The notes: generated by a model from the letters alone, not told the origin. Shown: positions 20,767-60,234, numbered from the stretch's first letter. The stretch is DNA of 64,000 bases from Squalus acanthias (GCA_030390025.1 CM059436.1:68882001-68946000); one strand, 5' to 3'. Numbers and translations: made by a program.

Positions 20767-20866
20767 GAAACAATAAAGAGGAGGAAGAAGCAATGATGCA
20801 AGAGTGGTTTGTGTTGGTGAATAAGAAGAATGCCTTGATACGACGACAGAACCAGCTTTCACTTTT
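20767..20866 (+). CDS. EHBP1: EHBP1 coding exon (first of the last four; bMERB domain)
   Basis: Acceptor ttcctctgtttttcag|G and donor TT|gtaagt. Translates (G)[32 protein letters not shown](L), matching the remembered vertebrate EHBP1 motif [23 protein letters not shown]. Confidence 0.95.
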
Positions 20867-23569
20867 GTAAGTGCAAAGAAAACTAAACAAATAACCAGTG
20901 TATTTTGTCAAGTTGTATAATGATCTACATGAATGTAAAGCAGCATTTATATGTCCATTTACTTTATTTACACGGAACTTTATTTCTCTTTGTTGTTAAA
21001 GGTTACTTGATTAGAATGTGTTTGTGAAATTCAGAAATAATGTTTATCAATTGACGAGCAAAGCTCAATAATGTGGCACATCTGCAACATTCATTCTTGT
21101 TACTTTTATAATTCAATTTTAAATATTTTATGATTTCTACTAATACCTAATTTCACACTGTTTGAAAAGGGTGTGAAATTGGGTATTAGTAGGATTCTTT
21201 TCTTGGTTGGTGTAAGGACGTAGGTTTGTATTTTCATGAAGATGTATAAAGAATGATTTGCATTTCTAGTGCTCCTCATGTGCAGAGAAAACATCGCCAA
21301 AGTGCTTTTCAGGATGATGGACAAAGATGGGCCACGAAGCAGGGGGAGGAAAAGGAAATAGAGGAATGGGGTGGCAAAACATAGTGGAAGAGAAGAGCCT
21401 TAAGGAGGAAGGTGATGTGGGAGCGATACCAAGGAAGAGAGTTCCGGGGGCATGCACATAATAGCTGAAGAATTGAACAGAGGGAGCCAGGAACAAGGAG
21501 TGGAGCAGAGTGAGTGTGCAGGGATTTGATTGTTGAGGTAGGATAGGGCAAAGTTACTGAGGAAAGTTTCAGCTCATCCAGGTCTTCCTGTTAGACAGGC
21601 AAGAGGTTGCAGAGAGTGGTAACGGCCTTGAGGGGATGATCAATGGTGGAGGCAGAATTGAGCCGAGGATCATCAACATACGTGTGGATGCTGATCTCAT
21701 GCTTCTTGATAATGTTGCCATGGTATAACATATAAATGATGAAGAGGAAGGGTCAAGGATGGAGTTCTGGGGTATACCAGAGGTGACCATGCAGGCATAG
21801 GCGGAGAATCCATTGGAGGTGATATCGTACCAATGATGCAACAAGTAGGAGTCAGAGAGCAATGCAACAAAGGTGGACTGTGGAAGAGAGACAATTGAGG
21901 AGGATGATTTGGGCTGAGCAAAGGCAGCAGAGGAGGATCAGGAGGGACAGTAGGTCACGTTCACACTCGCAAGCACAGGATGCCGTTTTCATGGCAACAG
22001 TGTTGTGGGCAAGGCAGGATAACAAACTGGGAATGGTGGGAGTGTAATTGCAAGACCATAATTCATTCCAGAGAGAAAGGGAGTATTGGAGATGAGCCGT
22101 GGTTGGACATAATGGAGGGGTCAAGAGTAGGTTTTTAGAGATGAAGGATGGTCATGGCAGTTTTGAAGGATGTAGCAACCATGCTGGAAGATAGCGGCAG
22201 GTTGATGATGTCGACGCGCATGGAGCTAAGGACAGCAAGCTGGGACAGATGGGGTTTGAGGAAGCACATGGTGGACTTCATGGTTGAGAGGTGGTTAGTA
22301 AGGTCTGATGGGGAGGTGGAGGATAAACTGGAGTAATGCAGGTGAGGACTTAGTTGGGAGATGGATTGGGAACAGGAAAGTAGAGGAGTCACTGAGGCAG
22401 AGGCAGCAGAATGGATGATCTTGTTTTGGGACATGAAGACATCCATGAAGTCTTTGCATTTGATGTCGAAGGTGAGGATGGAGAGTACAGTGGGGTGAGG
22501 TCGGAGGCGATTGTTAGAGATGTGCCCACAGGATGATATGTGGAACGGGAGTGACTAGCCTTTGATGTATCCATGCCACATTTGACAATGGATAGCCAGA
22601 GTGGTTACTAGCCAAGATTGCTTAAGGTTACGGGCTATGGACTGGCTGTTGTACCAATGGAGATGGTGGAGAAAGTGATCTAATGGGGATAAAGTGGGAA
22701 TAAGACATTTTTTCAGATCAGTGGAGGTGTTGGTATCATCATAAGTAGACCAGAGTTACGGTGAGATGCGAGTTGACATTTGTGAGGGAGTTGATGTGTA
22801 ATTTTTTCCCAGGGGGAGGAGAATGAGGGTGGAGGGGTTTGGCAGATGCAGAGGGATAAGTAGGAGAAGGGAGATCAGGAAAAGATTGGAGAGGATGTCA
22901 GTAACCGAGACCTAAGAGGTATCAAGACCCTGTATGATGCAAGGTCTAAGGGCAGGCCATTTGTGTGGGGGCATTGATGGGAGGGGAGACAAGGGAAGTC
23001 AGCTACGGTGTGAGAGGGTGAGCTAAGATGGAGGTTGAAATCACCAAGGATTCCCTTGGCGCAAGGACAGGGGGCAGAAAGGAGACAGGAGATTTCAGTG
23101 AGCAAGACATCTATCTGCCCTGGGGTGGGGCAGTTAGATAAGGAGGACATGAAAGAAGTGGAGGAGGCTAAAGTGTTCAACTGTGGAAAAGGAACCAGAG
23201 GAATAAGGGGAAAGATCAAAGTAGGATTTGTAGATAAGTGCTACGCTAGCAACGTGACAGTTTGCGTGGGGGACATGGTATAACGTCATGCCAAGTGGGC
23301 AGTCTTGGCGAGACAGATTTCAGTAAATCAAGATGTTGATACACTCCTCCGGGATGAGGTCATGTATGGAGAGGACCTTATTTGCAAGAAGGCAGATAAT
23401 TTGTAGGATAAAGCGTAGTTGGCTGGAGACTCATCAAGGCAATAGGGAGACTTGATTGGGGGTCAGAAAGGGCGAGTGAAGAAGCAGGAGGATGGAGAGA
23501 AGGTTTGAATTATATGGAAAATGCTGGAAATACTCAGCAGGTCAGGCAGCATCTGTGGAAAGAGAAAGA

Positions 23570-23606
23570 GAGTTAATGTTTCAGGTCGATGACCCTTCGT
23601 CAGAAC
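23570..23606 (-). ncRNA. Minimal hammerhead ribozyme motif (PLE-type), - strand copy
   Basis: GUU-CUGACGA-A-GGGUC(AUC)GACCU-GAAA-CAUU-AAC. Stem I GUU/AAC is intact; the stem III CG has changed to CA. Confidence 0.6.
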
Positions 23607-23643
23607 GTGCTGACGAAGGGTCATCGACCTGAAACGTTAACTC
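23607..23643 (+). ncRNA. Minimal hammerhead ribozyme motif (PLE-type), + strand copy
   Basis: CUGACGA-A-GGGUC(AUC)GACCU-GAAA-CGUU-AACUC: both catalytic boxes, stem II, and a palindromic ACGU stem III. Confidence 0.65.
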
Positions 23644-24499
23644 TGTTTCTCTCTCCACGGATGCTGCCTGACCTGCTGAGTATTTCCAGCATTTTCTGTT
23701 TTTATTTCAGATTTCCAGCACCCGCAGTATTTAGCCTTTGAATTATATGGAGATGGTTTGAGAGATTAACTGCAGAGAAATGTGCTGGGTGGGGAATGTG
23801 CTGAGAAAGGGGGATGAAGCAGTTTGGGTGACTGTTGCAGCAGAGAAACTGGCAGAAGCTATTGAGCATGGTGAAAAATGCCAACATTGAGGCAGATGAA
23901 GACCTAGGCAGTGAGAGATTGGAGCCAAAATTCCAATGGACCCAGCTCTGCCTTTGCAAGTGAGGTGGAGCGGAACCCATGACTGCTCAAATTGAAGGAC
24001 GCTGACCCCGTCCCAAATTGCAGGGCATGGTTATTGTGTTCAGGGCAGGCGCCGGTGCCTGTAAGGAAAGACAGAGCAGCACCTAGCTACTCTACTAGGC
24101 TACCCTTCCCAAGCTAAAAGTAAACCAGCACTGAAAGATCTTCAGTTCCAATGGGATCTATAACTTTGGCAGCATATGAAGAGTCGCTCAGTGCAGAGGC
24201 TGAGGGAGGAAAGGAGGGACAATATCTCTGAGAAACTCGAGGTGGGGCATTGGGGTGTTCGAGGAGGAGGCTTTTAGAGGTGAGGTGAGAGAGGTGGAAG
24301 AAGGCGAGGTGCTTGAAGGAGGAGAAGGAACCAGAGGAACGGGGGCAAGAGACCAAGGTGGGGTTTGGTGATGAGGGCCCACTGTGGTAGTTTGGCCAGG
24401 GCAGGTGGGGGAATGTATACCAAAACCATGAGGGGTCAGTAAGGGCAATGTGCCGACACCTGTGTAGATTATGTATGTAGCCTCCTACTGCCCACAATC

Positions 24500-24783
24500 C
24501 CCGGCCCCTAAACTTGCTGTTCCTCTGAGTCACGGCCTCTACTGCATTCCCCACTCCTTTCACCCCACCATTGGTAGCCGTACCTTCAGCAGCCTAGGTC
24601 CTACTTTCTGGAATTCCCACTCTGAACCCCAACACCTCTCCACCTCTCCCTCCTCCTTTAAGACCACCTCCTTGATCAAGCCTTTGGCCACCCTTCTAAT
24701 TTGTCCTGCTTTGGCTTGGTCCTCTGTTTACCTTTTGCCTCTGTGAAGCATGTTATATGCACCATGTAAATGCAAGTTGTTAA
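24500..24783 (+). mobile_element. Old L2-type 3' fragment
   Basis: Translates PTIGSRTFSSLGPTFWNS, homologous to TIGGRAFCCLGPKLWNS of the 27809 ORF. Tail tgtaaatgcaagttgtt. Confidence 0.75.
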
Positions 24784-25865
24784 GTCATAAACATATTCTA
24801 TCGTATCTTTACAAATTGTGACAGCTTGTAAGGTCAGTTATTGCAACTTAGCAGTCAAAAATTGCTGTCTTGACTGCTATCACTTTAACTATATTGGGGG
24901 AGTGGCATTAATTTGATGCTGTAATTAAACATGTACTTAATGTCTTTTAAGCCATCTGAACATCATTTTTATAATTATACCATTATTTTTAACAATTTAG
25001 AAACAATGTAACACATAATTTAGTTATGATTTACTATCAGTGTGGCATATTTAAAATATCACCTTCTTGTCGTAAATCACAGTACTCAGCTTCACATTTT
25101 CCTAATTTTGTTTAATTAGCTACAAGATTTAAATGAGGAGATGAGTGAAGATTAAATTTAGCTGCAAACTAACTCTATACCGTAGAGCCTCAGAACAGTA
25201 GCACTGAACAGTATGCAACTAGATCTGTATAAAATGGAATGTAGCTTTTCCAGATTATTTATACACCAGAAATATGATTTATGAAATTATTGCAATAATT
25301 ATTGATTGACAACTTTATCACAACATAACAGGGATGATTCGTGAGTCGGTAGGTGGCCCCAGCCAGGAGCAGCACACGCAGGCAGCAGTGGTGGGGAAAT
25401 CTTGGGCCCACAGCTCCTGATTTTTCATTAATTCATTTAAATAGATGGAAAGTCAAGGTCAAGGTTTGCAGGCCAGCGCTTTCTCGGCCAGCATTACTCG
25501 TGAGTGCCACTTCATGCCGGACTGCCCAACTAAGCAATCAGCCCTGCACTTACCATTATTTTCCATTACTTTTGAATGTATCTTGATCTTCTTGTAAGGG
25601 AACCTAATCTTTCTTATCTCCCTTTTAGCCCCCCTTCACTGATTTCTGGGGCTCCACACCTCCTGAGACACGCAGGACACTTACCAAATGATTTTCTTCC
25701 CTTTTCTGCCACAGCAGGGTGGAGCATCAAACCTGTGTCCCACTACGCCTCTGTTGTGCCACTGTATGCCACTATAATTCTTCATTGGACGTTAAACATT
25801 TATATTAGAATAACATGGAGTAATAGCTCTATTGTTTATTGCTGTATTATGATCATGTTCTCTAC

Positions 25866-26160
25866 GAACATAGGAATATATGAGACCAGAAAAGAGCTTT
25901 GCACCTGGCTGGTTTCAGCATCTCGGAAGTATCATATCCCACAATATTTATCATATCCCTTTACCAGTTCTTTCTTTGGGTACTTATCCAATTCTCTCTT
26001 GAATTTGATTATACACTCAGCCCCACTGCCTCCTTGGCAGTCCATGCCATTCATTCATTACCTCCTGCATAAAGCAGTTAAATCTTAACCATCTTTTCAG
26101 CATCCCTTTTCTACGTTTAAGGATATGCCCTCTTGTTGTCGAATAGTAACTATGTTAAAA
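25866..26160 (-). mobile_element. Highly decayed CR1 3' end
   Basis: Begins with gaacataggaatata (reverse-complement CR1-type tail) and follows the layout of the CR1 3' end at 43140-43515, but is very diverged. Confidence 0.4.
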
Positions 26161-27599
26161 GTTTATTTTTCAGGATGTGGGATGCATATATTGCCCAACC
26201 CTTGTTTTCCTGAGAAGGTGATGATGGACCTTCTCCTTGAACCGGTGCAGTCCTTGTGGTTATGATTCTCCCACAGCGGTGTTGGGAATTCCAGAATATT
26301 GATCCAGTGATGTATTTCCAATTCAAGATGATGGTGTGTGACTTGGAGGCATTGCTGTTCTTGTCCTTCTCAGTGGTAGAGATTGAAAGGGAGGGAAATG
26401 CTGTTCAGGTAACCTTGATGAGATAGCTTCCAAAGATGGCTCCTGGGCTGGCAGCCCCTTTCTGAGCTGCTCTTCTCTTCAACTGTATCCATGGTCATCC
26501 ATTGCCATCTTTTGCCCTTTCTTCCCCCAATCGCCTTTCTTCAATTGCTGATAGTGAAGGCATTTCAGCCCAAACTACAAGTTCAAAGCTACCCCTGCAG
26601 AGTCCACTGCCCATCCCCCGGCATCTTTGTTCTCTCTCAGCTCCTTCAACTGCTGAAACTCTGCTAAAACTTGACCTCCATCACTGAATTCATTGCGGAC
26701 AGGACTTCGTTGACTACACGGTTTGACTCAGAGGCTGTGGCGCTGCTCTGCTTTTCAGTCACTTCAAGTCTTAAGCTGCGGAATTCTTTTGTCAAATTGG
26801 TTTACGATCTCCTGGACTTCTCTGGACATCTGGACTACGTTTCTGCTTTGAACTACATTGGATTACACTATGTTTCTGCACTGGATTACACTGTAAGACT
26901 TACCTGCTTTGTCTCTATCTTTGCTGCAAAAAGATTTTTACCTTTAAACTGCAGCTGTGTCTCTGCTGAACTGGTTCTACTGGTTGTTCAGCTCTGCTGG
27001 CCTCTAGCTAGCAGCTGCTGCTCCACTTGCTCTACTGGTTTTCAGCTTTGCTGGTCGCTGGCTTGTAGTTTTACTTTTTCTCCGCTGCTTTGATCTACGG
27101 TGACCTCCAACTTGCGTCATTTTAGCCATCATCTTTCTGCATCGCTACCAACTCTCATTCCTACAGCAACAACCTCCATCCTCGAACTCTCTACCCTTCA
27201 AATAGCGTCTGGACTTCACTCACCTGCTTTGGACAGTGATTCGGCGATACTCCGTGCCGGCCCCATCCTGCTTACGTTGGCTTTGTCCCTCCATGGGACC
27301 TCTGACTTTGACCCTGGTCTCCCTACTATTGTCCCCAACCTATTCCCTGCTACCAGGAAATATGTATTCCATTAATTACATTTAAACAGGCCTATGTAAC
27401 CTGAGTTTATCTCGTGTCCATTCACGTGCGCACTTTGGCTGCCGCTCCGGACCCAAGCCATTCCACTTTTTCCCCCTATTTTCCTTTTCTCTCTATCCCT
27501 TCCTAACTGCTCTCTCCTGTCATTATGCCTCCTTTCATCTCTCCTCTCTCGGATACACTGCCCTACCAAATCCCTACCCCAATCCATCATTACTCTTTG

Positions 27600-28814
27600 A
27601 CCTTCCTACTCTCCTGCCGCCACTCCATCCTTCTCCAACTCCTCTCCACCGTCGTCCAGCTAGGTGGGACTGCACTCACCTGGTTCCATTCTTATCTATC
27701 TAATCGTAGCCAGAGAATCACCTGCAATGGCTTCTCTTCCCGCTCCCGCATAGTTACCTCTGGTGTCCCCCAGGGATCTATCCTTGGCCCCTCCTATTTC
27801 TCATCTACATGTTGCCCCTTGGCGACATCATCCGAAAACACAGCATCAGTTTCCACATGTACGCTGACGACACCCAGCTCTACCTCACTACTACTTCTCT
27901 CGACCCCTCTACGGTCTCTAAATTGTCAGACTGCTTGTCCGACATACAGTTCTGGATGAGCAGAAATTTTCTCCAATTAAATATTGGGAAGACCAAAGCC
28001 TTTGTTTTCAGTCCCCGCCACAAGCTCCGTTCCCTAGCCACTGACTCCATCCCTCTCCCTAACATCCGTCTGAGGCTGAACCACACTGTTCGCAACCTTG
28101 GTGTCAGATTTGAAATGAGCTTCCGACCACATATTCGCAGCATAACAAAGACCGCCTATTTCCACCTCTGTAACATTGCCCATCTCCACCCTTGCCTCAG
28201 CTCATCCGCTGCTGAAACCCTCATCCATGCCTTTGTTACCTCTAAATTTGACTATTCCAACGCACTCCTGGCTGACCTCCCACATTCTACTCTACGTAAA
28301 CTTGAGGTCATCCAAAACTCGCCTGTCCGTGTCCAAACTCGCACCAAGTCCCGTTCGCCCATCACCCCTGTGCTCCCTGACCTACATTGGCTCCCAGTTA
28401 AGCAGCGCCTCGATTTCAAAATTCTCATCCTTGTTTTCAAATCCCTCCATGGCCTCGCCCCTTCCTATCTCTGTAATCTCCTTCAGCCCCACAACCCCTT
28501 GAGATATCTGCGCTCATCTAATTCTGCCCTCCTGAGCATCCCTGATTATAATCGCTCAACCATTGGTGGCCGTGCCTTCTGTTGCCTAGGCCCTAAGCTC
28601 TGGAATTCCCTGCCTAAACCTGTCCGCCTCGCTACCTCTCTTTCCTCCTTTAAGACGCTCCTTAAAACCTACCTCTTTGACCAAGCTTTTGGTCACCTGC
28701 CCTAATTTATCCTTATGTGGCTTGGTGCCAATTTATTTGTCTTTTAATACTCCTGTGAAGCACCTTGGGACGTTTTACTACGTTAAAGGTGCTATATAAA
28801 TACAAGTTGTTGTT
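27600..28814 (+). mobile_element. Relatively young L2 LINE, RT C-terminal half and 3' tail (pseudogene)
   Basis: SGVPQGSILGP, then a frameshift into ORF 27809-28705 (HMYADDTQLY, LNIGKT, LHWLPV, FKTLLKTYLF). Tail aaaggtgctatataaatacaagttgttgtt. Confidence 0.92.
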
Positions 28815-29704
28815 ACTGTAGTACATCCTGTAGTATGTACTGTAGTCACCTTGCACCAGTGAGGGAGGGGATGAATACTGAGTACAATGGCAGGGACACC
28901 AATCAGTGAACTGCTCTGTCCTGGATGCTGTTGAGCTTCTTGCATGTTGTTGTGCCCATCCAGGCAAGTAGTGAGTGTTGCATCACGCTCCTAATTTGAG
29001 CCACTCATTGCAGAGTACCAAGCCTTTGCCCTGCTCTTATAGCTATGATCTTGATATGACTGTTCCATTTAAGCTTCTGTCAGTAATGTCTCCCCCCACC
29101 CCCCCCCCTCAAGATGTTGATGGTGGGGGACTCAGCAACAGTGGTGCTGTTGAAAGAGGAGATGGTTGGAAATTCTCCTCTTCAAGATGGTCATTACCTG
29201 GTACTTATGTGGCACAAAAGATACCTGCCAGTTGTCAGCCCAAGTCTAAATGTTGACCAGCTTCTGCTGTAGGGTGGCATCGGCTGCTTCATTATTGGAG
29301 GAACTTAACGCTGTGAAATTGTCAGCGAACAGCCTTATGACTGAGGGAAGATCATTGATGAAGCCGCTAGAGATGGTTGGGCTCAAAAACACTTTCTTGA
29401 GGAACTCCTGCATCAGTGTCCTGGGACTTTGATGATTGGCCTCTGACAACCACGGCCGCCTTTGTTTGTGTCCGGTATGACTCCAGCCATTGAAAGGTTT
29501 TCCCTTTAAGCCCCATTGACCTCAGTTTTGCTAGGGCTCCTTGGTGCCACACTCAATTGAATTATGCCTTGTTTTGAGGGCAGCTGCTCCCACCTCTCCT
29601 CTGGATCAAAGCTGTAATGAGGTCTGGAGGTGAGTGGTTCTCGCAGAACTGAAACGGATCAACAGTGAGTGGGTTATTGGTGACTAGCTGTTGCTTAATG
29701 GCAC

Positions 29705-29878
29705 TATTTTTTTAATTAATTTATGGGATGTGGGCATCGCTGCCAAAGCCAGCATTTATTGCCCATCCCTAATTGCCCTTGAGAACGTGGTGGTGATCCG
29801 CCTTCTTGAACCGCTGCAGTCCGTGTGGTGAAGGTACTCCCACAGTGCTGTTAGGGAGGGAGTTCCAGGTTTTTGACC
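29705..29878 (-). mobile_element. Younger 3'-terminal fragment of the same LINE family nested in the old copy
   Basis: gggatgtgggcatcgctg...gcatttattgcccatccctaattgcccttgagaa...ccttcttgaaccgctgcagtcc is a better-preserved homologue of 26165-26300, with a T-rich end. Confidence 0.75.
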
Positions 29879-32289
29879 CTTCCATCTTTTTCACTGATAA
29901 TTGGGAGGAGGCTTATAGGGCAATAATTGACCAAGTTAGATTTATTTGTTTTTCTTTATATACCTGGGCAGTCTTCCACATTGTCTTGTAGATGCCAGTA
30001 TCATAGTTGTAGTGGAATAGTTTGGCAAGGGGATCAACTCGTTCTGGTGCACAGGTCTTCAGCACTACAGTTGGGATGTTGTCAAGCACAAAACCTTTAC
30101 GTTTTCCAATGGATTCAGCCACTTCTTAATGTCACCGAGGTGAACCAAATTGGCTGGAGACTCGCATCAATGATAGTGGGGACTGCGAGAAAAGACCAAG
30201 TAGATTGTACACTTTGCACATTTGGCTGAAGATACTTGCAAACACTTCAGCCTTGTTTCTTGCACTCGTGTGTTGGGCTTCACCATTGTTGAGTATGGGA
30301 TGTTCATGGAGCTTCCTGCTCCGTTAGTTGCCTGGTTGTCCAACACTATTCTCAACTGGATGTGGTAAGACGACAGAGCTTTGCTCTGATCCATTGGTTG
30401 TGGGACTGCATAGCTCTGTCTCTGGCCTGCTGCATTTTGTATTTAGTGTGCAAATAGCCCTGTATTTAGTTTCACTAGGTTGATACTTCATTCTAAGGTA
30501 TGCCTGGTACTGCTACTGGCACAGGTTTGGTCCCCTGGCTTTGATGGTGATGGAGGAGCATGGGATATGCTAGGCCACGAAGTTACAGATTGTGGTCATT
30601 TATAATTCTGCTAATGATGGCCAACAGCATCTCATGGGTGCCCAGTTTTGGGTTTCCAGTTCTGTCCTTAGTCTGTTCCACTTTGCATGGTGGTAGTGCC
30701 ACACTACACGATGGAGGATGCCCTCATTGTGGAGACGAGACTTTTTTTTCACAAGGACTTTGCAGTGGTCACTCCTACGATTGCTAATGTGGACAGATGT
30801 GTCTGTAACAGATAGGTTTGTGAGGATGCAGTCAAGAAGGTTACTTCCTCGTATTGGTACCCTCACCACCTGACAATGGCCCAGACCGGCAGCTATGTCC
30901 TTCAAGACTGGACTACCTCAGTTACTGGTGGTACTACCAAGATACTCTGGGTGGTAGTCGCCCACCAAAGTACATTCTGATCTTCTTCCAAGTGATATTT
31001 AACATGGAGGAATAGTAATTCATCAGTTGACTTGGGTAGGCGGGCTGTTGGTGGTAGTCACCAGGACATTTTCTTGACCTTGTTTGACCTAGACTTCATG
31101 GGGTTTGGAGTCTATGTTGAGGATTGCAAAGGTCGCTCCCACCCGACTGTATATCACTGTGCCCCCAGCTCTAGTGGGTCTATCTTTCCTGTGGGACAGG
31201 ATATACCAGGGGTAGTGATGGTGAGTCTGGGATGTTGGCTGATAGATCTGATTCTGTGAGTATGACTATGTCAGGTTGTTGCTTGACTAGTCTGTGGTAC
31301 AGTTCTCCCAACTTGGGCACTAATCCCCAGATCTTAGTGAGGAGGACTTTGCTGAAATTGCATAAGTCTTGCCTGGGTCATTATGAATCTGTCTGATTTT
31401 ATTCTTATTTTTCAATTTGGTCATGATTTTTTACAACTGAGTGGCTTTCTCAGCTACTTCAGAGGGCATTAGAGGTCAATCACATAGTGTGGGACTGGAG
31501 ACACATGCATGCTAGTCCTGAAGGACATTAAGTGAACCAGTTTTTTTTTAACAAAGCGGCAGCTTTTATGGTTATTTTCCTAGCATTAGCCTATAAATTT
31601 AAAAAAAATTATTAAATTCAATTCCATAACTAGCCTAATTTGGGATTTTAATTCAAGATCTCTGGTTTGCTAGTCAAGTACCATAATTACACTACTGTAT
31701 CCCTATTATTGCACTTACATTGGTGCTTTCTATAGTTGTGAAACTGCTATTATATCTCAAATGATCCATAATCTTCTAAGTTCTGGCTTAATCCATTATT
31801 GCCAATGTGGTTCTGAGCAATTTTGTTGCCTTATATTATGTACATCTGGAAATCTCCACTTGAACACTTTGGTGAACTTTTGTCATTGCTTTGGACATCT
31901 CCAAACATTTAACAAGGTCTCGCACTCAGCACATCTGAACAAGGTACCATCATATAACCTCCCAGCAGAACTACGTTGATGGCTATAAAGTTTCCTCTCA
32001 AATTGGTTTATTTGCTGGGTTATCCTCCAATTCTTTTTCCATTAACTCGGGGTCCCAGGACTCTGTATTACTCTGTTCCTTCTTCATATCAAATCCTCTT
32101 TCATCATCGTCCACTCCTTTGCTGAATGCCTCCCAAATCTCCTTTGTTGCTGAAGATTCCTCAAGAAATTTATTTCCACGATACTAAACACTTATTTTCC
32201 CCAAAACAACTCTTAACTCGATAAAGTCCCAACTTCATCCAAGACTTGAATACTGTCTCCATATTGAGGATGCGGTCCTAGTACCTAGT

Positions 32290-35200
32290 GTCGTCAGCTG
32301 GAGGAGCTCGAGCTCCAGGTTTCGGAGCTTGAGCAGCAGCTGGCGTCACTGCGGTGCATCCATGAGGCGAGAGCTTCGTGGATAGCACGTTTCAGAAGGT
32401 GGTCATCCCGCAGCTAAGGAGTGCGCAGGCAGACAGGGAATAGGTGACCGCCAGACAGAAAAGGAGGACCAGGCAGGTAGTGCAGGAGTCCCCTGAGTGT
32501 ATCTCGCTCTCTAACCAGTATTCGGTTCTGAGTACTGGTGAGGGCAATGGTTCCTCTGGGGAGTACAGCCAGAGCCAAGTCCGCGGCACCATGGGTGGCT
32601 CAGTTGTACGGGGAGGAGGAAGAAGAGTGGGAGAGCAATAGTGGTAGGGGATTCAATAGTTAGGGGAGCAGACAGGTGTTTCTGCAGCCACAGACATGAC
32701 TCCAGGATGGTATGTTGCCTCCCTTGTGCCAGGGTCAAGGATGTAACTGAGCAGCTGGAGAACATTCTGAGGGGGGAGGCTGAACAGCCAGAGGTCGTGG
32801 TCCATATTGGTACCAACGACATAGTTAGAAAGAGGGATGAGGTCCTGCAGGCAGATTTAAGGGAGCTAGGAAAGAGATTAAAAAGCAGGACCTCAAAGGT
32901 AGTAATCTCTGGATTACTCCCGGTGCCACGCGCAAGTGAGTATAGAAATAGGAGATAGAGCAGATGAATGGGTGGATGGAGAGATGGTGCAGGAGGGAGG
33001 GCTTCAGATTCCTGGGGCATTGGGACCGGTTCTGGGGGACGTGGGACCTGTACAGGCCGGACGGGTTTCACTTCAACAGGGCCGGAACCAATATCCTCGC
33101 GGGAAGGTTTGCTAGTGCTGTTGGGGAGGGTTTAAACTAATTTGACACGGAGATATTCCTGGTTATAAGGTGTTCAGGAAAGATGGGGAAGGAAAGATGG
33201 TGGTGTGGCAGTATTGGTTAAGGAGAATGTTAGTGCTGGAGAGGGAGGATGTCCTGGAGGGGTCAAGGACAGAATCTATATGGCTAGAGTTAAGAAATAA
33301 TAGAGGTGCCATTACACTACTAGGTGTATTCTATAGACCACCAAATAGTGGGAAAGATATGGAGGAGCAAATTTGCAGAGAAATTACAGAGAGGTGCAAG
33401 AACTATCGAGTAGTAATAATGGGGGACTTCAACTATCCTAATATAGACTGAGATTGTAATAGTGTAAAGGGCAGAGAAGGGGAAGAATTTCTGAAGTGTG
33501 TTCAGGAAAACTTTCTTGATCAGTATGTTTCCGGCCCGACGAGGGAGGGGAGGCATTGCTGGATCTGGTTCTCGGGAATGAGATGGGTCAAGTGGAGCAA
33601 GTGTCAGTAGGTGAACATTTAGGGAACAGTGATCATAGTATCATAAGGTTTAGATTACCTATGGAAAAGGACAGGGCGCAATCTAGAGTAAGAATGTTTA
33701 ATTGGGGGGAAGGCCAATTTCAGTGGGATGAGAATGGATCTGGCCCGGGTAAACTGGAATCAAAGATTGGCAGGCAAAACTGTAGTGGAACAATGGGCTG
33801 CCTTTAAAGAGGAAATTGTTCGGGTACAGTCGAGGTACATTCCCACGAGGGGGAAAGGTAGGTCAACTAAAGTCAGAGTTCCCTGGATGATGAAACAGAT
33901 AGCCAATATGATGAAGCAGAAAAAGAGGACGTATGACAGTTGCAAATACATCTGAGAATCAGGCTATATACAGAAAGGTCAGAGGAGAAGTGAAAAAGAA
34001 AATAAGAGGGGCAAAGAGAGGGTATGAGAATAGAATGGCAGCCAGCATAAAAGGTAATCCAAAAGTCTTCTATAGGCATATAAATAGTAAAAGAGTAATG
34101 AGAGGAGGGGTGGGGCCGATTAGGGACCAAAAAGGAGACCTATGCATGGGGGCAGAGGGTATGGCTGAGGTACTAAATGAGTATTTTGCATTTGTCTTCA
34201 CCAAGGAAGAGGATGCTGCCATAGACATAGTGAAGGAAGAGGTAGTGGAGATACTTGATAGTATAAAAATTGATGATGAAGAAGTATTGGAAAGGCTGGC
34301 TGTACTTAAAGTAGATAAGTCACCAAGAGTGGATGGGATGCATCCTAGGATGCTGAGGGAATTGAGGGCGGAAATCGCGGAGGTACTGGCCATAATATTC
34401 CAATCCTCCTTAGATACGGGGGTGGTGCCAGATGACTGGAGAATTGCAAATGTTACACAATTGTTCAAAAAAGGGTGTAAAGATAAACCCAGCAACTACA
34501 GGCCAGTCAGTTTAACCTTGGTAGTGGGGAAGCTTTTAGAAACAGTAATCAGGGACAAAATTAACAGTCACTTGGATAGGTGTGGATTAATTAAGGAAAG
34601 CCAGCACGGATTTGTTAAAGTCAAATCGTGTTTAACCAACTTGATAGAGTTTTTTGATGAGGTAACAGAGAGGGTTGATGAGGGTAATGCGGTTGGCGTA
34701 GTGTACATTGATTTCCAAAAGGCGTTCGACAAAGTGCCACATAATAGGCTCGCCAGCAAAGTTGAAGCCCATGGAATAAAAGGACAGTGGCTGCATGGAT
34801 ACGGAATTGGCTAAGTGACAGGAAACCAGAGAGTAGTGGTGAACGGTTGTTTTTTGGACTGGAGGAAGGTAAACAGTGGCGTTCCCCAGGGGTCGGTTCT
34901 AGGACCACTGCTTTTCTTGATATATATTAATGACTTGGATGTGGGTGTACAGGGCACAATTTCAAAATTTGCAGATGACACAAAACTTGGAAGTATAGTG
35001 AACAGTGAGGAGGAGAGTGTTAGACTTCAGGAAGACATAAACAAGCTGGTGAAATGGGCGGACACATGGCAGATGAAATTTAATGCAGAAAAGTGTGAAA
35101 TGATGCAATTTGGTAGAAAGAATGAGGAGAGGACATATAAACTAAATGGTACAATCCTAAAGGGGGTGCACGAACAGAGACACCTGGGGGTATATGTGCA

Positions 35201-35862
35201 CAAATCGTTGAAGGTGGCAGGGCAGGTTGAGAAAGCAGTTAAAAAGGCTTATGGGATCCTGGGCTTCATAAATAGAGGTATAAGAGTACAAAAATGTGGA
35301 AATTATGATGAACCTTTATAAAACACTGGCTCGGCCCCAACTGGAGTACTGTGTCCAATTCTGGGCACCACACTTTAGGAGGGATGTGAAGGCCTTAGAG
35401 AAGGTGCAGAAAAGATTTACAAGAATGATTCCAGGACTGAGGGACTTCAGTTACATTGTTAGACTGGAATAGCTGGGGTTGTTCTCTTTGGAGCAGAGAA
35501 GATTGAGAGGAGATTTGATAGAGGTGTTCAAAATCATGGGGGTGCTGGACAGGGTAGATAGAGAGAAACTGTTCCCATTGGCAGAAGGGTGGAGAACCAG
35601 AGGACACAGATTTAAGGTGATTGGCAAAAGAACCAAAGGCGACGTAAGAAAAAACTTTTTTACTCAGCGAGTGGTTAAGATTTGGAATGCACTGCCTGAA
35701 AGGGTGGTGGAGGCAGACTCAATCTGGAGTTGGAAAGTATTTGAAGGGAAAAAATTTGCAGGGCTATGGGGAAAGGGCAAGGGAGTGGGACTAGCTGAGA
35801 GTCCGCACGGACTCGGCAGGCCGAATGGCTGCCTTCCGTGCGGTAACCATTCTATGATTCTA
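32290..35862 (+). mobile_element. CR1 LINE, near full length, disrupted (ORF1 SGNH esterase; ORF2 APE endonuclease plus RT)
   Basis: ORF1 VGDSIVRG...CCLP.ARVKDV...VHIGTND (32641-32958). ORF2 pieces GVFYRPPN/MGDFNYPNID, LDLVL..SDH, NYRPVSLT..QHGF..DFQKAFDKV, GVPQGSVLGP..FADDTK, FFTQRVVKIWNALP. CR1 tail cattctatgattcta. Several frameshifts/stops and a deletion near 33145. Confidence 0.95.
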
Positions 35863-36548
35863 CCTCTGTCATGCTGCTGAACAAAGTTAAAAAGCTTGTC
35901 AAATGATGCTCCTTTCAGCTTTCCTCTTTTTTTTATTTCAAAAACTGCAAACTCACAATCCTGTACACTCTTCCCTACATTCCTACTGTGTTGAAAGCAA
36001 GATTCATTGCCTAGCCGCCAATTTAACTCCTTTTTCCCAGGACCTCAAATCTGTGGAATTACATTTCTCCCCAATCTTTCATTCATCCTACAGTCTTCAG
36101 ATTTTAAAACCCAGTCTTGGCATTGCCTAATCCCTGCTACCTGATTTACTTTGTTTTATCTTTATTCCTAGTTTCAACCTGGGAGCCCATTGTATGAGGT
36201 TGATTTCTAACAACCTTACCCAACAACTATCTCTCCTGCCGAAAGACAAGAAAAATCAAAAGACCAGTGTACCTAGTGTCAAATCTCATTTTGCCCTCTT
36301 TCCAAATAATTGAATAAAATTTATAGCAATACAAATGAGGTAATATTGTATGATATGCCACACACTAATTTTAAATTCGCCATAATTAGAACACTATCAG
36401 TGAAGGTTTGTATATCAGTCATTTGGAGTAGATTAAAGGTTTGAGAAAAGACAATGGTCAGTCCCAGTAATCAATGAATCTTAAAGGTGCTTTTAGTCAG
36501 TAATGATTTGTTAATTACTGTATTGATGAACTTTTTTGACTTGCCTAG

Positions 36549-50880: not shown

Positions 50881-52201
50881 GCCAGCCAGCCCTCAAACCC
50901 TTTACCCCTCAAACCCTCTCCTCCCACAACCTGCGGACAAGGGCATTTGGGCAATTCGGCAGTCGCCTTTTTCAGAAATTAAGAATAACATTGTTAAAAC
51001 GCATACATTTAAATAATCTAGATTAAAATTAAACCATAAGTTTTTTAAAAATCTGCAGCCTTCATTGGTCTTTGAACTGGAAGTTAGTTGGCTAAATTGA
51101 TCAAATCTACGTTGAGAACTGCTAATTTACTATGTACCTGTCTCAATGTGCTGGCTTTCTGTTTCCCCTTAAGTAGATGCATGCTATATACACTCTTATT
51201 TAAAGGTATGATGTGCTGTTTGTTGCGTTACACAAAATACCAATCTTAAAAGTTACTTAAAACCATTTTGAACTTGTATTTTTTAAAAAGCTGTTTGCTA
51301 AGAATGTGCTGAAATCCGAGTTGTGTTCTTTATGTAGTGGAGTTTCTGGCGCCTCTTGCATATTAAGCCTGATATGAACGGATTGAACCACGCGTTTGAC
51401 AATTTAGTTAATTCTTGATAGGCAGGGGATGGTAAATCTGTAGAATACTATTGATAACATTTGAGGCCGCCCGGTGATGCATTTCTCTGGTGAAGTGGTT
51501 GTAAAGTATACGCCGTGCTGAAGAATGCAGCAACTCACTTTGCTGGAGTTTTGCTGTTCTCTGTTTATACACAGCGCATGCAATGTTCTGTAATAAGCAG
51601 AGTTTGTTTACCTTTAAAGGATTGGATATTTGGGATATATTTGGTGTTTTGGGATCAAAATGTCACTGGCGCACACACCAAAAGAGGAACTAATGCCGTT
51701 TGTACCAGAAATAAATAACGACGTCCCCTGCGCCTCTTTCTGCTGACAGGTAATGCAGCGGTAAAGCCAACTGAAAGAATGCAGAAAGCCGAAACTGAAT
51801 GTTGGGCTGCACTGTGGCACCAAACCCCGAATAAAGTCATCGTTCCTCTCACCAACGTAACGTGGTCATTCTAACCTGTGGCGAGAATGGGTTATGTAAT
51901 CAGCATGCTGTGATTAAAACATAACGCTGTTAATGAAGGTATTTGTTGTGTATAATCGCAAAACTCGTGAAATAATCGATTGAATCAACTTGGAAAGTTT
52001 GAATGCCCAGTTCCAAATTGTTTGAACTGTAATGGCAGATGATTGCCAATGTCTGCTTGATGCTTTCAAAACCAACTATCATTTCTAAGTACTACATGGT
52101 TTACATTTGGAGTTTCGGGTGATACTGAGAGTTTAAGCAGAAAACAAAAAAAGTACTCCTAGCAAACAGAGAATAAATGTACTGTATACTTGTGTTTTCA
52201 G

Positions 52202-59100: not shown

Positions 59101-59642
59101 AATCTTGTGTCATGTTGTGTTACAGGCCAGAGAAGTGGCTCCTGCCCTCATTTACTGAGTTTATTTGTGTCCAACCGTGTGAAAAAGCTACGCAGGTGAG
59201 TGTGAGACTAGCTGCGTTTATGGGAAGTGTATCATGGAAACTAATTTGAGTTGAGACGATCAGTAAGTTTCTTTTATTAAAAAGGAAGTAGTTTTGGAGG
59301 TGTGGCAGTTTTAAAATCAAATGCATTTTGTTGTGGTTTGTTGCTAAAGTACAGCCGTTTTTGGTGCTGTTTAATTGTGAATGAGTTATTTTTCCTGTCA
59401 TAGTATTTCTAAATGTTTATATTTGTGCTATGTTGCTAAGTAAAGCAATTTATAGCTGTTAGCTGCGTCCAAAGTATGTGGATCGTCTCATTTGCTTCAT
59501 TTTTCTCACGGAAATTTACAATTGTAGTGTCCAAGGGTCGAATAAAAGCCTTGAATCCACTTACCGGCTAATTGGAGAGGCGTGTTTTCGCTTTTTGTTA
59601 ATTTATTTTGCTGATAAGGTTTCCCTTTAAATTGTCTCCCCC

Positions 59643-60234
59643 GAGGTCTAGTCTAAATTGTAATTGACTTAATTTGCACACAGCGATCGCCTTTTAAATG
59701 AGAGCACGGTTTTATCTGGGTCCTGTGGAGGTGAAAATTTGGTTTAGGACACTGTTGATTGAGGATAGCTGCAATTTTGGCTGCCGGTTAATTTTTTTCT
59801 GCAAGTGCTCTGATGTTATCCTTACTGTTTTGAGTGTGTATTCGATTAAAATGCCCACACTGAATATTCAGATTGATCTAATTGTTTTTTTAATTGGAAG
59901 CTAGTTTTTTGGGGGGAAAGCAAGCTTGATATTTTTTGTCGACTTTATATGTAACTTCTATTATACACAACAGGTTTTAGGATGTGATGGTAACAAATCT
60001 AACACTTTTATTAAACGCCAGGTAAAAGTGGTCCCGAAGGTTTCTAAACACTAAATTTGTCTGTTCGATTATATCTCAGATTATTGAAGAGTTTAGTCAA
60101 GGAAACCAAAACGGAAAATTGTCACTTTAGTTCATCCTTTCGTACTCAGTGATATTTTACTTTGATTCCAGAGGTCTAGTCTTAATTGTAATTGATTTTA
60201 ATTTGCTCCCTGCAATCGCCTTTTAAATGAGAGC
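59643..60234. repeat. Dispersed direct repeat pair (59643-59705 and 60171-60234), TAAT-rich
   Basis: gaggtctagtct(a/t)aattgtaattga..ttaatttgc......atcgccttttaaatgagagc occurs twice, differing by ~6 substitutions and 1 indel. Confidence 0.9.

Follow-up and report, generated by a model that had tools for sequence, protein, structure and literature searches.

Two head-to-head ends of an abundant, likely Penelope-like repeat form a probably single, lineage-restricted insertion with likely inert hammerhead motifs in an EHBP1 intron of Squalus acanthias

We analyzed a 64,000-nucleotide stretch of the Squalus acanthias genome (GCA_030390025.1 CM059436.1:68882001-68946000), hereafter the window, in which an intron of EHBP1 holds a 218-base inverted-repeat insertion with one hammerhead ribozyme motif in each arm. 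The flanking reading frames, at about 20,770, 36,550, and 52,200, have canonical AG/GT splice sites in consistent phase, and both the upstream exon (E 1.5e-14) and the exon near 52,200 (E 7.8e-22) match EHBP1 in the PDB, which bears out the intron location given in an original prediction made from the DNA of this locus. We conclude that the sequence is probably a single, lineage-restricted insertion of two head-to-head ends of an abundant, likely Penelope-like repeat. Since one hammerhead lies on each strand and both are predicted to be trapped within an 87-bp hairpin, the motifs are likely passengers without activity.

The two arms pair over 87 bp with four non-Watson-Crick positions, of which two are G-U compatible on the + strand (23577/23636 and 23554/23659). 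A 40-nt unpaired tail is present at one end only, and the whole is flanked by a direct repeat that is exact across 15 bp and not extendable (Table 1). The inverted repeat with four mismatches (two of them G-U), the 6-nt spacer, the tail, and the perfect 15-bp repeat are all as previously described. With two low-complexity tracts excluded, one other pair of exact repeats of at least 15 nt, spaced 100 to 1,000 nt apart, occurs in the window. The insertion folds at -174.2 kcal/mol (z -22), a value equaled by 0 of 200 shuffles, and its inverted repeat is by far the longest of the nine in the window (within 400 nt). The left arm and the left duplication overlap by 2 nt (23517-23518), outermost in the arm and last in the duplication. 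Family letters around the loop and tail were taken from the loose ends of contigs, before 23610 and behind 23732 and 23740, and the likeliest reading of 23609 (G) is a single change from the family's T.

Table 1. Coordinates of the EHBP1 intron and of the parts of the insertion, counted from the first nucleotide of the window
Feature	Coordinates	Strand	Description
Host intron, EHBP1	20867..36548	+	Between two exons of the C-terminal domain
Left target-site duplication	23504..23518		15 bp, 12/15 A/T; final 2 nt shared with the end of the inverted arm, where they pair
Inverted element 3' end, without tail	23517..23606	-	Begins 3 nt ahead of the CUGA box
Inverted repeat, left arm	23517..23603		87 bp paired
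Non-Watson-Crick position	23554/23659		T.G
Non-Watson-Crick position	23560/23653		A/C
Non-Watson-Crick position	23568/23645		G/G
Minimal type I hammerhead motif, - arm	23572..23606	-	Stem I GUU/AAC, CUGACGAA, stem II GGGUC-AUC-GACCU, GAAA
Non-Watson-Crick position	23577/23636		T.G
Junction/loop	23604..23609		6 nt; blunt head-to-head join between 23606 and 23607, one change (23609 G; family T)
Direct element 3' end	23607..23696	+	Truncated at the 5' edge of the hammerhead
Minimal type I hammerhead motif, + arm	23607..23641	+ (EHBP1 pre-mRNA sense)	Palindromic ACGU, H17=U at 23638
Inverted repeat, right arm	23610..23696		87 bp paired
One-sided tail	23697..23736	+	40 nt; family-like letters continue 4 nt into the right duplication
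Right target-site duplication	23737..23751		15 bp

To follow the structure of other copies, we aligned contigs from public sequencing runs to the locus; contig depth in these alignments is not copy number. A contig from organism C (run X6, record 25) joins positions 23200-23502 directly to 23737-24049 (contig coordinates 3701-4004 and 4005-4315), and this empty site has the 15-mer a single time, to within 1 nt; the element is therefore a true insertion. Both junctions are matched with 0 differences by records 1 and 8 of run X1, from organism A, which may be the sample behind the window itself. Organism B probably lacks the insertion as well: the listed piece of a 13-kb contig begins at 23737, and the left flank is covered at equal depth, the left piece not being among those listed. 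The flanks diverge by 8% from B (right flank) and 13% from C, and the arms by 4.6% from each other; the insertion is therefore younger than those splits. Its target is 12/15 A/T, versus 52% in the flanks. The site lies within or beside a decayed - strand long interspersed nuclear element (LINE), with reverse transcriptase (RT) similarity at 21645-21853 and, in a - strand frame at 22878-23240, a GDFN motif that we take to be typical of APE endonucleases.

Both arms contain the CUGANGAH box, stem II, GAAA, and N-N-U-H of a minimal hammerhead. The + motif has the palindromic stem III with two of three stem I pairs, and the - motif has all three stem I pairs with a non-palindromic CAU (H17=U at 23575); neither arm combines a palindromic stem III with a fully paired stem I. 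The bare CUGANGA..GAAAC pattern is not above chance, with at least two matches in 33 of 100 shuffles. The full descriptor, which requires CUGANGAH, GAAA, N-N-U-H, and a stem II that starts with G and has 4 or more pairs, gives a single match in 40 Mb of random sequence matched for dinucleotides; in the window it matches the two arms and nothing else. The two cores are as originally written (GUG/ACGU on the + strand, GUU/ACAU on the - strand). Rfam hammerhead models gave no match to the insertion even at E 10.

The arms resemble the minimal hammerheads of metazoan Penelope-like elements (PLEs) in their U-rich lead, CUGANGAH, G-started stem II, GAAA-N-N-U-H, and short stem I (PMC4209133, Fig. 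2E). They fit the consensus in Fig. S3 of that paper, save for the - arm palindrome and for positions 10.1-11.1, where both arms lack the G10.1-C11.1 pair and have G.U, a wobble also found in several motifs of that list, the cichlid and X. tropicalis(1) ones among them. No shark is among the 56 motifs aligned in the paper. Opposite-strand pairs of minimal hammerheads are already reported there at spacings of 100-700 bp, and also in Fig. S4A, whereas the motifs in the EHBP1 intron are 6 nt apart.

The two motifs, being on opposite strands, never occur together in one RNA: in a + transcript the + motif is accompanied by the - motif in reverse complement, and the converse is true of a - transcript. 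In folding predictions, forcing stem II plus an open core costs 45.5 kcal/mol relative to the hairpin, stem II pair probabilities are below 1e-15, and the hairpin is already predominant in transcript prefixes ending just past the cut site. The folding model thus predicts that a hammerhead core cannot form at the EHBP1 locus. A heterodimer of the two motifs in trans was considered and rejected; stem III would pair at only 3 of 4 positions, and the RNA's own hairpin or a sense-antisense duplex would be far more stable. The ACAU of the - motif is a CpG transition at 23636 that makes up 4.7, 5.4, 10.6, and 16.6% of family depth in four runs. What had been proposed as complementary defects of the two motifs is ordinary variation, given that the motifs share no RNA, that the hairpin imposes its penalty, and that ACAU is a common CpG variant. 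PLE hammerheads are reported to have low activity even as dimers (PMC6765202).

A near-perfect 87-bp hairpin on the pre-mRNA strand, to which Rfam microRNA models give scores, could suggest that EHBP1 has exapted the insertion as a microRNA precursor, an editing substrate, or an intronic ribozyme. However, all Rfam scores fall far under gathering (best, 49.3 versus 90), with none at gathering in the window, and the insertion is missing at the orthologous site of organism C. We treated the subthreshold microRNA matches as generic hairpin matches and give a regulatory role almost no credence.

The arms are part of a very large repeat family. The element was aligned by 47,460 (X1), 75,716 (X2), 46,747 (X6), and 119,696 (X11) contigs and the + arm alone by 43,099 (X1), 4,226 (X15, whose RNA status is only guessed), 91,838 (X9), and 41,905 (X6), which amounts to about 42,000-120,000 contigs per run across five non-RNA runs and five organisms. 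The family is longer than this copy: in 4 of 4 runs, 566-1,203 contigs per run depart at 23610 with shared U-rich upstream letters. There are 1,294 joints listed in the four-organism alignment, and most of the 15 displayed skip 37-85 nt across the center; in the + arm alignment, which has 140 joints, 12 of the 15 displayed are strand switches. The depth over the center of this insertion is 0.05-0.24% of the arm depth (23635-23663 bin). Another fold-back with a different junction is spanned by a spurious open reading frame (ORF), P0008. Junctions appear clustered near the 5' edge of the hammerhead and varied in detail, and the insertion is one end of this family rather than a fixed unit.

These counts bear on the earlier proposal that the insertion is a discrete, amplifying unit of about 220 bp, a non-autonomous hairpin of retrozyme type or resembling a miniature inverted-repeat transposable element (MITE), copied whole by a Penelope RT. 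A center 1 nt shorter is crossed in all four organisms, by 21, 21, 12, and 16 contigs at 23607 and by 21, 11, 9, and 5 at 23609, and both trans-mobilization of Penelope terminal repeats (pLTRs) and non-autonomous PLE derivatives have been published (PMC3846280, PMC8557442). Against such a unit, the center reaches at most 0.24% of arm depth among more than 1,200 other joints, and the displayed center-crossing pieces (32 of about 288,000) have 10-27 differences and 0-13 gaps. No second copy of the insertion was found within the 64-kb window, and same-strand tandem hammerheads are absent, leaving no route to a circle. With the family continuing upstream of the junction and junction positions so varied, we abandon the discrete unit as an improbable reading.

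The retrozyme comparison fares no better. In animal non-LTR retrozymes, units are repeated in tandem, head to tail, and hammerheads on the same strand release circles (PMC7229834; bioRxiv 10.64898/2026.07.22.740005). The insertion is like them in being short, non-coding, and hammerhead-bearing, in its likely kinship to PLE terminal repeats, and in its long target-site duplications; unlike them, it is head-to-head with one motif per strand. The original label of retrozyme-like does not hold for a sequence without head-to-tail, same-strand repeats, and identity with a non-LTR retrozyme was rejected for want of tandem same-strand hammerheads.

Searches beyond the sequencing runs were made with DNA patterns and with the predicted translation. 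DNA pattern scans of prokaryote, viral, and metagenome collections revealed no relatives, with 0 loci in metagenomes and, for two patterns, 0 in viral contigs; 2 viral and 11 prokaryote loci matched merely 17-35 nt around the pattern and were taken as chance. Across the whole of the + arm and tail (23607-23735), one frame of 43 codons is free of stops and has an ATG within it at 23661. When this frame was compared with 1.84 billion proteins using HMMER, 11 of the 13 matches were spurious translations of other copies, P0001 and P0007 were dropped as repetitive chance matches, and none of the 13 contained an RT or GIY-YIG domain. A word-index search of longer proteins for the parent ORF passed 0 of 2 candidates. 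A horn-shark gene model, P0009, contains two pieces of the repeat, probably through mis-prediction.

The layout and motif of the insertion suggest that its parent is likely the terminal repeat of a PLE. Four of five features of insertions by endonuclease-bearing (EN+) PLEs are present, namely, an inverted, 5'-truncated copy, a one-sided tail, a duplication with an empty site, and a hammerhead. An inverted truncated end, a one-sided tail, and a target-site duplication make up the standard complex insertion of these elements (PMC3846280, PMC8557442, PMC8969392), as in Pen2/Pen2a of Adineta vaga, with an inverted pLTR, a 31-bp tail, and a 9-10-bp duplication (PMC3846280). The EHBP1 insertion shares with Pen2/Pen2a and with the scheme in Fig. 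2 of PMC8557442 the head-to-head inverted end, the one-sided tail of 30-40 bp, the target-site duplication, and the near-palindromic junction. It differs from Pen2/Pen2a in having no ORF, in arms that are both reduced to about 90 nt, and in a duplication of 15 bp versus 8-10 bp in the rotifer examples. By this comparison, we regard it as a miniature example of a known PLE insertion layout. Of the claim that the unit is non-coding and mobilized by a Penelope RT, retro-insertion, the PLE-type hammerheads, the inverted end, and the duplication have stood, and the link to the RT is one of layout and motif. We found no literature on a shark Penelope hammerhead family or on hairpin-shaped non-autonomous PLEs, in a search whose coverage left out most subscription papers as well as Repbase and Dfam.

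Fragments of CR1/L2-like RT are common in the window, and LINE priming is also compatible with a 15-bp duplication and an AT-rich site, so that the tail of a short interspersed nuclear element (SINE) or LINE inserted by CR1/L2 machinery through ordinary twin priming had to be considered. In twin priming, an internal piece is inverted but stays single-copy, whereas the same 90 nt are present twice at the EHBP1 locus. Furthermore, the insertion does not end in poly(A) or a simple repeat, its arm is without similarity to the LINE fragments of the window, and the minimal hammerhead of the PLE consensus is present. We consider such an origin very improbable.

We favor a PLE origin and propose the following course of events. 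Insertion would have begun at the AT-rich 15-bp site in the EHBP1 intron, which is duplicated here and empty in organism C. The GIY-YIG nuclease of the element may have nicked both strands 15 bp apart, and each nick would then have primed reverse transcription on element RNA, from start points about 40 nt apart, the outer start giving the arm with the tail and the inner start the arm without it. Both copies would have halted at the 5' edge of the hammerhead before being joined head to head, and the arms could conceivably have come from two different source RNAs. The resulting EHBP1 pre-mRNA is predicted to carry a long double-stranded hairpin and no active ribozyme. In vitro, the purified protein of PAc (Poseidon), a PLE from Anolis carolinensis, nicks AT-rich DNA on both strands and extends both; its reverse transcription starts at two internal sites, which delimit the tail, and hammerhead cleavage is not required (PMC11167929). 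The EHBP1 insertion is similar to PAc in its AT-rich target with ATT, its end points about 40 nt apart, and its upstream hammerhead. At the outer junctions, target and element are identical over 2 nt on the left and over 4 nt on the right, where 7 of 8 positions agree with the loose-end consensus (X15, X9).

The arms themselves bear on how many templates were used. Three of the four differences between them match family alleles present at 3% or more (nominal chance, 0.004), in a listing of family differences that spans 23636 to 23704 and is blind near the ends. Two of these three shared alleles are at CpG sites, and the weight therefore falls on the transversion 23645 G>C, which occurs at 6.7% and 15.2% in organism A versus 0.4-0.5% in C and D. 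Alternatively, a single template from the same parent, with the same inert outcome, could have produced the mirror arm by self-priming (snap-back), with all four arm differences arising after insertion. This model was proposed in PMC3846280, and it suits the nearly symmetric junction, the short quasi-palindrome formed by the family letters just ahead of the CUGA box (loose-end consensus), which could fold back, the CpG transitions that make up two of the four differences, and an arm divergence of 4.6% that fits the age bracket. It accords less well with the sole arm transversion, which matches an allele enriched in organism A (one of 3 such transversion alleles among 122 possible), with outer junctions that both look separately primed, and with the extension of both strands by the PLE enzyme in vitro (PMC11167929). 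The shared alleles, and chiefly this transversion, modestly favor two source RNAs over self-priming on a single template, an explanation that we consider unlikely.

Several observations weigh against the account of a two-ended PLE insertion given here. A sequence link from the repeat to a PLE RT/GIY-YIG ORF was not obtained, a GIY-YIG domain is absent among the 150 ORFs scanned of the 159 in the window (at least 70 amino acids), and the protein searches with the open frame of the arm led only to spurious or chance ORFs. The PAc enzyme primes without homology to the cut DNA in vitro (PMC11167929), unlike the short identities at the EHBP1 junctions. Two of the three shared arm alleles, being at CpG sites, could postdate the insertion, and the 4.6% divergence of the arms is within the range allowed by the flank divergence to B and C and hence compatible with a single self-copied template. 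Near-symmetric junctions no more than 1 nt from this one were found in every one of the four organisms, with 5-21 contigs for each run and place, and a small fixed-junction subfamily of fold-backs is possible. Lastly, the listed breakpoints at 23610 and 23660 coincide with differences of this copy from the family, and junction positions are approximate.

A number of other features were noted in and around the insertion. The + arm contains two stretches resembling 3' splice sites in the sense of the EHBP1 pre-mRNA: the first (23642-23662) has lost its AG, with G at 23659 in place of the A that is the most frequent allele of the family in X1 and X6, and the second (23692-23709) is intact and lies partly outside the hairpin. 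Another hairpin (21132-21197), about 270 nt past the end of the EHBP1 exon at 20866, has 32-nt arms that are 84% complementary and no Rfam match at gathering score. The same intron contains, both on the + strand, a broken, near-full LINE with an OSK/GDSL-type ORF1 domain, endonuclease, and RT (32542-35880), presumably CR1-like, and an RT fragment (27507-28705), presumably L2-like. Elsewhere in the window are an imperfect AT-rich palindrome of about 90 nt with 82% self-complementarity (4444-4531), a pyrimidine-rich tandem array on a unit of about 22 nt (48030-49217), a long GA-rich tract containing an N gap (1221-3445), and a pair of 67-bp direct repeats, 88% identical and 528 nt apart (59640-59705 and 60168-60234).

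Taken alone, the insertion is one dead repeat end among tens of thousands. It is likely inert, a stub rather than an element that spreads itself, and it is predicted to give the EHBP1 pre-mRNA a double-stranded stretch of 87 bp. We think it quite doubtful that fold-backs joined at the 5' edge of the hammerhead are a small subfamily copied whole as a hairpin by a Penelope enzyme; if they were, this would be an RNA-borne, MITE-shaped passenger needing no working ribozyme. Even without copying of the whole unit, a recurring junction would mark the start of the element's RNA, and if the arms derived from two subfamilies, a single insertion would be shown to draw on two RNAs. The value of the locus is as a clean record of how PLEs build inverted ends, a point left open in PMC8557442 and PMC11167929, for which it offers an orthologous site without the insertion, the outer junctions on both sides, and a table of family alleles.

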